64,000 bases of DNA from Candidatus Nomurabacteria bacterium. GTDB lineage: Bacteria; Patescibacteriota; Minisyncoccia; Phycocordibacterales; UBA5272. The notes beneath the pieces were generated by a model that searched no databases, was not told the DNA's origin, and was given only the letters and a program-made list of their open reading frames with translations. Made by a program: the position numbers and the translations under genes. This document shows positions 28,605-30,789 of the stretch, one piece after another (position 1 is the first letter of the stretch; each line of letters starts with the position of its first letter). The stretch is taken from contig JAQBRF010000004.1 of assembly GCA_028286645.1 (NCBI GenBank), forward strand, positions 408,942 to 472,941, in the 5' to 3' direction.

Positions 28605-28622
28605 ATGTATATTCTAGCACAT

Positions 28623-28651
28623 TGCCTTATTTTCTTTTATGTTGTAGATTC
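28623..28651 (+). promoter_or_regulatory. promoter of cassette 1 (TTGCCT-N17-TAGATT)
   Basis: Same -35/-10 architecture and spacing as the intercistronic modules R1-R4. Confidence 0.45.
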
Positions 28652-28681
28652 AAGGAGATAGATCACAGGGAGATTTGTGCC

Positions 28682-28915
28682 ATGAATATTCCGAAAGACA
28701 AGAACTACCCGCCAGACGCTGTGCAGTGCAACGAATGTGGTGGGTGGGGTGAAACAGAAAGAAACGAAGACTGCGAGACCTGTGGAGGAAAAGGATGGCT
28801 TCCGCATGGCCATCCGAAAGGCAGAAAGTGCTATCGCGAGGTATGCACCAACACCATCCCTCCCGCGCAAGTCGCCGTTTACTGCACAAATGAATGCGCC
28901 CACCTCGACGCATAA
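28682..28915 (+). CDS. small Cys-rich zinc-ribbon protein (cassette 1)
   Basis: GGGAGA RBS. 77 aa with CNECGG...CETCGG plus further Cys/His. Confidence 0.5.
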   Translation: MNIPKDKNYPPDAVQCNECGGWGETERNEDCETCGGKGWLPHGHPKGRKCYREVCTNTIPPAQVAVYCTNECAHLDA

Positions 28916-28931
28916 CGGCATCCCTGCAATA

Positions 28932-28998
28932 CCCCGGGCCTCGTGGCCTGGGATTTTTTATTTGCTTTTCAATTTTATCTATTGTAGGTTTAGGGGGA
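28932..28998 (+). promoter_or_regulatory. terminator-promoter-RBS module R1
   Basis: GC hairpin CCCGGGCC-TCGT-GGCCTGGG + T-run, then TTGCTT-N17-TAGGTT, then TAGGGGGAA. 67/67 identical to R3. Confidence 0.6.
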
Positions 28999-29035
28999 AA
29001 TGCACCGTACCTAACTCGCCTGAGGAGACATCACA

Positions 29036-29433
29036 TGACTGTACCGAAACAGGACGAAAAAGACGCCATATGCTTCCTCGCGTTTTACATCAGCAGCGAA
29101 GGACCCCCTGCGTTCTACGTATTGGGGCCGAATCTCCCCACCTCGGACTTCGGTCATGAGAGCCTTGAGAGGTTTGCCTCAAATGTAGCAACAGCGATCG
29201 GAGGTGCCGGTACTTGCCACATGCAGCCACCGTATGCCGAGTATCTCATCATCAAGGACGACCAGGTGAAAGTCTCCGGGGGAAGCGCGGGCCTCCGGAT
29301 CGCCGAAGATGTGGCGAAGAGCAAGAAGATCGAGGGGTACCTCAATTCTAACAACCGCGCCAAAGACGCGCTGCTCAACCTTTCCCCGCTCATTCGCTGG
29401 CGGACAGTGCAGCAAATCATTATCCCTCTGTAA
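29036..29433 (+). CDS. hypothetical protein (cassette 2)
   Basis: GAGGAG RBS 6 nt upstream. 132 aa. GC-rich. Confidence 0.5.
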
Positions 29434-29448
29434 CTGCGACCACGATCG

Positions 29449-29600
29449 ACCCGAGCCCTCACGGCTCGGGATTTTCTTTCCTATAGCCGAGCAAAGCACG
29501 CTATAGGATTGCACCCTATACCGAGCTCTGCTCTGGTGTAGGGTTTTGCTTAAATTTTTTAAATGGTGTAGTGTAATTTTGAACCAGACCTGATTTCCTA
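29449..29600 (+). promoter_or_regulatory. terminator-promoter module R2 (variant with two hairpins)
   Basis: CCGAGCC-CTCA-CGGCTCGG + T-run. Second hairpin ACCCTATACC/GGTGTAGGGT. TTGCTT-N17-TAGTGT. Confidence 0.5.
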
Positions 29601-29615
29601 CCAACTGGAGCCGAT

Positions 29616-30062
29616 ATGAGCGACCTTACGCTTGCCATAGTGATTCTTTGCAGCATCATCGCACTCTCTTCGTCGCTGTTCATCCCCGTGTTTGCGTACA
29701 GCTACGGACAAAAGAAGCACGACTACAGACCACAAATACCTGCGGCACTTCGCAATCTTAAGTTACTCGCAGTCGTCGCGACGATCGTCACAGTGACGAC
29801 TGCAGGCGCCGCCTACCTGCTGTATCAGTATTTGCTTCCGCAATACCAGACCATCTTCTGGTGGTTCATGGGGTGGTATCTCCTGGGCTTCATCGGAATG
29901 ATCCTTCACATGAAATCCCAGTTCTCAATCTTCAGCAAGCACGACCCGGATATCTTGGAAATTTTCGGGGCAACATTCGGCGCACTTTGGGGCATGATCG
30001 TACTGGCGGCTGTGAGCGTGAAGCTCTGGAGAAACAGAAAGAAGCATTGCACTGCTTCGTAG
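29616..30062 (+). CDS. small 4-TM membrane protein (cassette 3)
   Basis: GGAG RBS. 148 aa with four hydrophobic helices. Confidence 0.5.
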   Translation: MSDLTLAIVILCSIIALSSSLFIPVFAYSYGQKKHDYRPQIPAALRNLKLLAVVATIVTVTTAGAAYLLYQYLLPQYQTIFWWFMGWYLLGFIGMILHMKSQFSIFSKHDPDILEIFGATFGALWGMIVLAAVSVKLWRNRKKHCTAS

Positions 30063-30086
30063 GTGTAGTTAACTACAAAGCGATTA

Positions 30087-30153
30087 CCCGGGCCTCGTGG
30101 CCTGGGATTTTTTATTTGCTTTTCAATTTTATCTATTGTAGGTTTAGGGGGAA
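30087..30153 (+). promoter_or_regulatory. terminator-promoter-RBS module R3 (identical to R1)
   Basis: 67-nt perfect repeat of 28933..28999. Confidence 0.6.
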
Positions 30154-30177
30154 AGCCCACAACTTGAAGGAGAACAC

Positions 30178-30544
30178 GGTGCCCCACACAATAGTTCACT
30201 ATATGCACGGAATCGACCCGGTCGTCGTCAACACCCTGAAGGAAGCACTCCCGGCGATTGTCGCAAACGCACTGAACCAAAGCCAGATCCGCGCGAGGCA
30301 TCTTTCGCCCTCTCAGGTCTGCGTTTACGAACATGAGTTCAAGCGATCGGACGTGAACTGCCTTCCGCTCGAAATCGAGATCAGGAGCGGAGAACGATTC
30401 AATATCACAACCAAAGAAGTACGACTGAAGGTGATCGCAGAGATCGCCGAGCAACGTCTTCTTCCGGAAGAGCTCATCGGCGAAGACAAGTCCGGTGTCT
30501 GGGCGACCTACATCGATGAAAGCTTCGGATGGACCCATCCGTAA
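30178..30544 (+). CDS. tautomerase-superfamily-like protein (CHMI/MIF-like), GTG start then Pro (cassette 4)
   Basis: AAGGAG RBS 6 nt before GTG. N-terminus (M)PHTIVHY resembles Pro1 tautomerases such as CHMI, which begins MPHFIVE. 122 aa matches that family size. Confidence 0.4.
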
Positions 30545-30548
30545 CCCC

Positions 30549-30615
30549 ACCCCTGGCCTTAGGCCGGGATTTTCTTTTGCTTAAATTTTTTAAATATTGT
30601 AGGTTTAGGGGGAAG
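30549..30615 (+). promoter_or_regulatory. terminator-promoter-RBS module R4 (no substantial ORF follows)
   Basis: Hairpin CCTGGCC/GGCCGGG + T-run. TTGCTT-N17-TAGGTT. TAGGGGGAAGG. Only a 6-codon ORF downstream. Confidence 0.5.
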
Positions 30616-30789
30616 GACAAACACGAGCGGAGGATCGCATGTCTCAATGCTTGAACTAATTAATGGCACTTAATCCTGAATACACGGAAGCTCTTCGTAA
30701 TATGGAAACCATGAAGTCATAGAGAGATATGGCAAAACCACCTGAACGCTCACGAACTAAAGGGAGTCACCTCACCCATAGATGGGATT

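Follow-up and report, generated by a model that had tools for sequence, protein, structure and literature searches.

Organization of the array and its junctions

The DNA analyzed here is a stretch of 64,000 nucleotides (the window) from a 514-kb contig of a metagenome-assembled genome (MAG) of Candidatus Nomurabacteria, in the candidate phyla radiation (CPR) of bacteria (locus tags JWN37_859-871). Within 28.6-30.7 kb of the window lies an array of four small, GC-rich open reading frames (ORFs), G1 to G4, all on the forward strand, each followed by an intergenic junction (R1 to R4) in which a hairpin and T-run are fused to promoter-like hexamers (Table 1). An earlier reading, made by a model from the sequence alone and without database searches (the sequence-only reading), had described four small ORFs each with a terminator-promoter module, and we find ORFs and junctions as it described them. 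Its description of the array as GC-rich also holds: the transcribed units are 51-57% GC, compared with 16-29% in the promoter segments, 32-34% in the flanks and 39% in the window as a whole. When GC content is computed segment by segment, composition switches sharply at the module boundaries. The GC-rich stretches run from the predicted transcription start to the terminator hairpin, so the captured units appear to have the extent of transcripts.

Table 1. Coordinates of the arrays, their junctions and the neighboring features, as positions in the window
Feature	Position	Strand	Description
Anchor gene	28257-28604	-	115 aa (amino acids), weakly YCII-like, conserved, divergent from the array
R0, first junction-type promoter (predicted)	28622-28650	+	TTGCCT-N17-TAGATT; hexamers 28622-28627 and 28645-28650; no terminator half
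Cassette ORF G1	28682-28915	+	77 aa, 8 Cys, two CxxCxGxG motifs (CNECGGWG, CETCGGKG); GC 0.53, third-position GC (GC3) 0.56
R1	28933-29000	+	Hairpin 28933-28952 (-18.1 kcal/mol), T-run, -35 28962-28967, -10 28985-28990, leader start GGGGGAAA
Cassette ORF G2	29035-29433	+	132 aa, strict ORFan
R2, composite	29450-29574	+	Terminator 29450-29470; hairpins 29480-29507 and 29514-29543; TTGCTT 29546-29551, TAGTGT 29569-29574
Cassette ORF G3	29616-30062	+	148 aa, predicted membrane protein, four hydrophobic segments (by eye)
R3	30087-30154	+	Identical to R1
Cassette ORF G4	30179-30544	+	121 aa, GTG start, predicted tautomerase-superfamily fold, N-terminal Pro
R4	30552-30614	+	Close variant; hairpin 30552-30568, -35 30577-30582, -10 30600-30605
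Truncated terminal cassette	30615-30659	+	GC-rich leader, Shine-Dalgarno GGAGG, ATG and 5 codons, then AT-rich host-type DNA
tRNA-Ser(GCT)	31641-31729	-	Near the distal end of the variable locus
Array 2	21305-25893	-	GC-rich cassettes A, B, C, D, E, G, H and an AT-rich NUDIX gene; own predicted promoters and terminators; downstream of a glyoxalase gene
Array-2 junction repeat	25845-25893 (native glyoxalase 3' end), 24680-24728, 24066-24111	-	From repeat families D2-D4 and sequence reading

The four window junctions share one anatomy. A GC hairpin with a T-run lies 7-24 nt after every stop codon of G1-G4; these four hairpins have predicted stabilities of -12.9 to -18.1 kcal/mol and all rank among the five best terminator-like sites of the 20-33 kb interval. 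The T-run passes straight into TTGCTT, and exactly 17 nt further on lies TAGGTT (TAGTGT in R2), giving the consensus TTGCTT-N17-TAG(G/T)(T/G)T, so that hairpin, T-run and promoter-like hexamers are present in all four. Directly 3' of the -10 hexamer, at the predicted transcription start, is TTTAGGGGGAA, which the sequence-only reading took for a ribosome-binding site; it is not one, since each start codon has a separate GGAG-type Shine-Dalgarno site 5-8 nt upstream (GGGAG at 28668, GAGGAG at 29022, GGAG at 29607, AAGGAG at 30167 and GGAGG at 30629). The hexamers match the sigma-70 consensus TTGACA/TATAAT, which is that of Escherichia coli, at 6 of 12 positions; we infer promoter and terminator activity from the position, spacing and pattern of conservation of these elements.

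R1 and R3 are identical at 68 of 68 positions (28933-29000 and 30087-30154), which upholds the identity that had been claimed and corrects its length from 67 nt. The 18-mer TTGTAGGTTTAGGGGGAA occurs three times against 0.07 expected. R4 is a close variant, as had been said, and the six-codon ORF at 30639-30659 is the only ORF after it. R2 is indeed longer than the other junctions, with three hairpins (two more than the others) rather than the two first described, and its inner hairpin part is a putative degenerate or empty slot. The promoter-like sequence of the first gene, R0, has the 17-nt spacing attributed to it, one base to the left of where it had been placed (28622-28650, not 28623-28651).

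The sequence-only reading cautioned that the R1/R3 identity might be an assembly duplication, and an exact repeat of 68 nt can confuse short-k assemblers, and how the segments between R1 and R3 are ordered hinges on reads that span the repeat. We compared the window with Logan unitigs of run SRR13312974, which are 100% identical to it. Unitig L010 ends at 28962, 30 nt into R1, and unitig L009 spans 28971-30116, starting 30 nt before the end of R1 and stopping 30 nt into R3; these breaks are those expected of a k=31 graph where a genuine 68-nt repeat is entered by two paths and left by two. This independent assembly contains each of the four different flanks of the repeat, L010 joins the host gene at 28257-28604 to G1, and a matching architecture occurs in a different genome recovered from two data sets (below). 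The array and the R1/R3 identity are not assembly artifacts, and the probability that a chimeric contig or a duplicated repeat produced them is practically nil.

Gene turnover and proposed recombination at the junctions

The array is bounded on its left by a divergently oriented gene that we call the anchor gene. Its family is widespread in CPR, with 182 homologues, the named ones all from CPR/Parcubacteria MAGs. The closest relative of the anchor protein is its orthologue in L011, a 15-kb locus from another metagenome (samples 3300059325 / SRR29932559), with 83% protein and 80% nucleotide identity; L012 is the same genome in a separate data set, and the array carriers are thus two independent genomes, that of the window and that of L011/L012. 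Nucleotide homology between the window and L011 covers the anchor gene and ends 8 nt upstream of its ATG. Beyond this point, L011 has an array of five units that together contain six ORFs, all in one direction (135, 250, 81, 199 and 71+80 aa), with five or six junctions homologous to those of the window. No cassette ORF of the window array has a relative in L011, nor the reverse, and the L011 cassette ORFs have no above-threshold Pfam hit.

Four window and five L011 junctions align in a single fixed register from hairpin to leader. The L011 junctions consist of a hairpin, a T-run fused to TTGCTT, TTTACT, TTGCCT or TTGACT, 17 nt, TTGTAG(G/A/T)TT, six bases and GAA, often with CAC a few bases beyond. 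Positions 30563-30615, at R4, are 91% identical to L011 3929-3982 over 54 nt, and one L011 junction resembles R0, whose right half is closest to L011 module 3 (TTGCCT...TAGATTCAA). The L011 array stops about 180 nt before the orthologous tRNA-Ser, its last junction cut just before the -10. The orientation of this tRNA gene relative to the anchor gene is opposite in the window (31641-31729, reverse strand) and L011 (1198-1287), the sequences 3' of it are unrelated in the two, and a tRNA-like fragment appears to follow it in L011; the arrangement points to a possible rearrangement or integration at tRNA-Ser.

In the two loci compared, the junctions persist while the genes between their copies are replaced. 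This is the opposite of modules being absent while the genes remain conserved as an operon, the outcome that the sequence-only reading had set against a cassette array. Its expectation that the module would carry different ORFs elsewhere is borne out by L011, with six unrelated ORFs, and by no further genome or bin in the collections searched: the exact module pattern gives only chance hits in GTDB representative genomes and IMG/VR, one of them inside a Magasanikiibacteria coding region, and a second viral scan with the R4/L011-type motif gives no match. We also built an nhmmer profile from nine junctions and searched the 64-kb window, L011 and three loci of more distant relatives. All ten array junctions were found, with E values from 1e-5 to 3e-11 (R4 best, at 3e-11; R0, a training member, at 3e-8), as were an ORF-less slot copy in L011 on which the profile was not trained (E 0.015) and one array-2 promoter (E 0.07); there was nothing else in the window, in the rest of L011 or in the three distant-relative loci. 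Relatives from the metagenome and other collections, with anchor proteins 65-77% identical, have ordinary neighbors and no array. The junction is therefore specific to this locus and lineage, because the profile finds the arrays alone and the distant relatives lack an array.

These searches bear on whether the junction could be a small mobile element, similar to a miniature inverted-repeat transposable element or a Correia element, that carries a terminator and promoter and inserted between the genes of an acquired operon. It is short, repeated, hairpin-bearing and strictly intergenic, and it has two identical copies, all of which would fit such an element. We nonetheless find this very improbable: neither terminal inverted repeats nor target-site duplications are visible, the 64 kb contain no copy beyond the two arrays, the remainder of L011 contains none, the database scans returned chance hits only, and the genes flanked by the copies do not form a conserved operon in the relative.

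Several features of the junctions look like footprints of recombination, in agreement with the earlier proposal that recombination occurs within the modules. R4 matches R2 at 21 of 22 positions on its left and 10 of 20 on its right, and R1 at 13 of 22 and 19 of 20, whereas L011 module 1 is close to it on both sides (20/22 and 19/20). These mosaic halves place the breakpoints in the AT-rich spacer that separates the -35 from the -10. R1 and R3 share one sequence although the genes beside them are unrelated, which indicates a recent conversion or duplication. R2 and the L011 junction that separates cassettes 1 and 2 contain empty slots, in which a degenerate promoter is followed directly by another terminator-promoter, and the last cassette of the window is truncated after five codons.

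The interpretation that we favor, with somewhat better than even confidence, is that of a hypervariable array in which recombination between composite terminator-promoter junctions shuffles moron-like ORFan expression cassettes. Each cassette would start with a GC-rich leader that carries its own Shine-Dalgarno site, continue with a small ORF gained by horizontal transfer (an ORFan or nearly so) and end in a hairpin. Between cassettes, the lineage- and locus-specific junction would run from the T-run into the -35, through 17 nt to (T)(A/G)TTGTAG(G/A/T)TT, and then six nt to the conserved GAA, the probable transcription start. Such a junction would terminate the upstream gene and start the next, providing the same insulated signal to every captured ORF, and, as 45-70 nt of shared direct repeat, would serve as portable homology. 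Recombination between junctions could then delete cassettes, insert them from circles or incoming DNA, or reorder them, and it would explain why two related genomes have the same junctions but different genes. We favor homologous over site-specific recombination as the mechanism because the mosaic breakpoints lie inside the module and no recombinase or attC-like site was found.

A second array in the window, array 2, broadens this comparison. Its repeat includes 49 nt of the 3' end of the host glyoxalase gene and is present in three copies that share one sharp left boundary, with TTGAC(A/T/G)-N17-TAG(T/G)(T/G)T after each copy. L011 has two copies, at 10298-10346 and 11448-11497; the first array-2 unit (cassettes A-B) and the second junction copy are kept there, and everything beyond differs.

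It is conceivable that both arrays are static islands of acquired genes, with junction similarity arising from selection within one regulon plus one or two local duplications and with no ongoing exchange. A common regulator or sigma factor could select the shared -35, -10 and leader features, and the A-B pair has been in place since the two genomes split, with a synonymous divergence (dS) of about 1 (0.85-1.7), near saturation. Promoter selection leaves the 68-nt identity, which includes the hairpin and spacer, unexplained, as it does the mosaic halves, the empty slots and the full replacement of genes between two genomes with 80% DNA identity in their anchor genes, and we regard a static island as rather unlikely.

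Site-specific gene capture is a further alternative, in which an unlinked recombinase would act on the junction, for example at a TTGTAG core, and insert circular cassettes with one junction each, as an analogue of integrons or by accretion at an att site. Integrons have an IntI integrase and attC sites, in which R'' (RYYYAAC) and R' (GTTRRRY) flank an imperfect palindrome of 50-130 nt, and their mostly promoterless cassettes are expressed from Pc. The arrays resemble integrons in their unidirectional, small, unrelated and mostly ORFan genes, their lineage-specific repeat, their differing content and their truncated or empty cassettes, and differ from them in that every cassette here has its own predicted promoter and terminator. 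An integron itself is ruled out: a Pfam scan of about 40 window ORFs found no IntI or other recombinase domain (the remaining long ORFs read as housekeeping), and both strands of 28600-30800 lack attC core pairs (0.4 expected) as well as any long imperfect palindrome, the hairpins there being 7-8 bp terminators and the longer stems in R2.

The broader version, with a recombinase elsewhere, draws on the junction's most conserved block being the short core TTGTAG(G/A/T)TT, on the array-2 repeats, whose single left boundary resembles att-site duplication, on the variable locus adjoining tRNA-Ser, and on the unidirectional, mutually unrelated cassettes. Set against it are the absence of a recombinase from the window scan and from L011 (precomputed Pfam marks of the 15-kb locus and a scan of ten proteins), the attC counts, and mosaic breakpoints that fall in the AT-rich spacer and not at one fixed point. 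A site-specific mechanism is thus an unlikely alternative, although one worth keeping in view. More specifically, the junction may be the recombination site of a dedicated CPR gene-capture platform, with an att site doubling as terminator-promoter and an unlinked recombinase of unrecognized type. We consider this quite improbable; if true, each captured foreign ORF would be expressed and insulated at once and equally.

As a candidate recombination core common to both arrays we considered GTTTAGGG; it occurs five times, all at junctions, which amount to two repeat families against 1.9 expected, within chance once repeat copies are discounted. TAGKTGTAATT is not enriched, and GGGGGAA was uninformative.

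Returning to the moron-like cassettes shuffled by homologous recombination, several observations weigh against this interpretation. The hexamers are weak by the E. coli measure and were not flagged by a consensus promoter scan, and the strong conservation of TTGTAG could instead mark a site of protein binding or recombination. The sharp left boundary seen three times in array 2 is what a site-specific enzyme might leave. The array is present in two independent genomes only, so turnover rests on a single comparison, and because GC enrichment of the L011 cassettes is mild (43-46%), a high GC content does not characterize the system in general. No deletion junction or circle was observed: an R1xR3 circle would fit the unitig graph, which does not demonstrate one. 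Lastly, homologous recombination explains the shuffling of cassettes but not how a new foreign ORF first gains its junctions, a difficulty that holds under either the homologous or the site-specific model.

Cassette proteins, the second array and other insertions

The proteins encoded by G1-G4 and by the neighboring array have no above-threshold Pfam match (with one sub-threshold SPFH/Band 7 hit) and no match to PADLOC or PHROGs. A PDB sequence search returned none for G1 and nothing useful for G4, and a viral search no relatives of G3 or G4. Cassette proteins that are found in the protein collection form one- or two-member clusters at 90% identity, G3 being a singleton cluster. G2 hits only itself among 5.8 billion protein clusters, and its single-sequence AlphaFold2 (AF2) model is unusable, with a predicted local distance difference test (pLDDT) score of 42.

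G4 had been called tautomerase-like from its sequence, and structure prediction agrees. It has 13 weak relatives among 1.8 billion representatives (E 1e-7 to 3e-4), Met1-Pro2 is invariant across the 13 sequences of the family, and the AF2 model made with the family alignment (pLDDT 91.9) has two beta-alpha-beta units. Its top Foldseek matches in the PDB are fused 4-oxalocrotonate tautomerase (4-OT), MIF, cis-CaaD and malonate semialdehyde decarboxylase (MSAD); all 39 PDB matches at E <= 0.001, which have TM-scores of 0.43-0.62, are members of the tautomerase superfamily or designed cages based on such proteins. Because G4 has no Pfam hit, its membership is by fold and not by sequence family, and the model places it in the tautomerase superfamily at the fold level.

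GC3 is 0.56-0.68 in G1-G4, compared with 0.21-0.40 in host genes, and G2-G4 have a pattern of GC1 > GC2 < GC3. By their codon composition, G1-G4 are probably real genes from a GC-richer source; the donors of the cassettes would then be GC-rich, and one G4 homologue is on a visibly GC-rich contig (GC judged by eye). The sequence-only reading had also raised the possibility that the cassettes are defense components; this is not supported, with no PADLOC hit for any cassette protein.

The only PADLOC hit is a weak one to mad8 (E 9e-4), and it comes from the P-loop ATPase encoded between the two arrays (26646-28139, reverse strand; 497 aa), a very AT-rich gene (30% GC) with a full-length match to phrog_13260 (E 4e-33). 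In L011 this slot holds instead a DUF2130 protein and a 1171-aa helicase, and in a more distant relative the glyoxalase gene directly follows the anchor gene. The ATPase slot is thus also variable, because L011 has other genes there and the more distant relative has none.

In array 2, cassettes A and B encode paralogous membrane proteins (24797-25752, reverse strand; L011 10448-11376), the source of the weak SPFH/Band 7 hit. The ratio of nonsynonymous to synonymous divergence between the window and L011 is 0.11-0.14 for A-B and 0.11-0.16 for host genes, and on these values A-B show purifying selection like that on host genes. The nearest other relatives, with 42-54% identity, are adjacent pairs in three IMG/VR viral contigs of 268-348 kb and about 25-30% GC (L025 and L026, at 4366-5432, and L027), which suggests a link of the A-B cassettes with very large phages. 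A and B have GC3 values of 0.63-0.68 in both genomes, against about 0.3 in the host; this high GC3 could reflect incomplete amelioration from a higher GC content, selection or independent acquisition from a GC-rich pool. Upstream of array 2, the window copy of the glyoxalase/VOC gene (about 25846-26211, reverse strand) has an in-frame TAG at 26101-26103 where L011 has GAA (MDFNY*GVQ versus MDFNYEGVQ), and is probably a pseudogene or contains a sequencing error.

Elsewhere in the window, isolated ORFs of raised GC content lie among AT-rich host genes at 11981-12511, 31889-32372 and 46934-47470 on the reverse strand and at 33771-34160 and 53777-54073 on the forward strand. They are 48-54% GC where computed and have no Pfam hits where tested, and those inspected, at 12, 32 and 34 kb, each have their own promoter-like sequence and GC hairpin terminator, without the array junction. 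From these features, the isolated ORFs appear to be single moron-like insertions. The window also encodes a SET-domain protein (PF00856, E 4e-26) at 48120-48671 on the reverse strand and, in a type IV pilus cluster, two tandem pilin-like genes (8006-8653 and 8751-9404, reverse strand) with a GC content of 0.42-0.45, above the genome average, and identical N-terminal regions (approximately the first 45 residues).

Relationship to known systems and significance

The sequence-only reading did not recognize the array as a described system, yet the array is close in architecture to the PeSL cassettes found in T4-like phages and to the morons of phages more generally; the reading's cassette-array idea is largely right but not without precedent. 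A PeSL (promoter-early/stem-loop) combines a sigma-70-like promoter with a stem-loop; in T4-like phages, these motifs are concentrated upstream of ORFans within hyperplastic regions (Arbiol et al. 2010, PMC2839356; Comeau et al. 2014, PMC4122927). They are found in five different promoter/stem-loop arrangements with about 50 copies per genome, and their recombination is reflected in indels between related phages, chimeric motifs and mini-circles (PMC2839356, PMC4122927).

The array has the same composite intergenic arrangement of predicted promoter and stem-loop, with hairpins of -12.9 to -22.1 kcal/mol, T-runs and TTGCTT-N17-TAG(G/T)(T/G)T. Its motifs likewise lie upstream of ORFans in a variable region, judging from the self-hit of G2, the lack of Pfam matches and a profile that hits the arrays alone. 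ORFs between the motifs are gained, lost or replaced among relatives, here in one genome pair, with chimeric motifs, and every ORF either arrives with a promoter and terminator or is given them.

The differences are that the array is located in the chromosome of a CPR bacterium, without phage genes as neighbors, and not in a T4-like phage, that the stem-loop is always 5' of the promoter with the T-run fused to the -35, that the junction occurs at one or two loci, and that the GC content of the cassettes is strongly shifted. PeSLs are characterized by promoter and terminator activity and by mini-circles, whereas the array is known from sequence. By analogy, the array would work like the PeSLs without being a member of that phage family. 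In the literature searched here, a PeSL-like arrangement is described only for phages (T4-like).

Morons are characterized by their own promoter, their own terminator and a deviant GC content (Cumby et al. 2012, PMC3594210). The cassettes resemble them as putatively independent units, each with a predicted promoter and terminator, that depart in GC content from their flanks and lie between conserved genes, and in that one array-2 cassette pair has relatives in large viral contigs. Morons are usually single prophage insertions, whereas here four or five tandem units with homologous junctions occupy a chromosomal locus that is not a prophage. Among the cassette proteins and the ATPase between the arrays, only the ATPase has a PHROG match, and the flanks are chromosomal: the surrounding window content is bacterial housekeeping, with RNase P RNA and tRNAs and, as read from ORF translations without a Pfam scan, gatA, ligA, SecA, LepA, TypA, MurJ and type IV pilus genes.

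Two further comparisons are the tandem accretion of integrative or cis-mobilizable elements at the 3' end of a gene and the minimal mobile elements of Neisseria. The copies of the glyoxalase 3' end between the array-2 cassettes resemble the attL and attR copies left by accretion, and, as in the Neisseria elements, the same conserved flanks enclose different genes from one relative to another. Both systems differ from the arrays, whose units are 0.5-1.1 kb without recombination genes and whose repeats also hold the predicted promoter of the next cassette.

CPR bacteria (Patescibacteria) have tiny genomes, and how they acquire and test genes is poorly understood. The locus described here would be a compact solution, in which every foreign ORF has a promoter and a terminator to itself and shared junctions ease the addition, loss and reordering of the units; some of these ORFs have relatives in phages and others on GC-rich contigs. 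It would extend the idea of the PeSL as a mobile regulatory cassette, known in the searchable literature from T4-like phages only, to a cellular chromosome. The junction itself may be a natural bifunctional terminator-promoter part of about 60 nt from a lineage whose transcription signals are essentially uncharacterized, and the junction profile offers a sequence model with which similar ORFan nurseries may be found in other uncultured bacteria.

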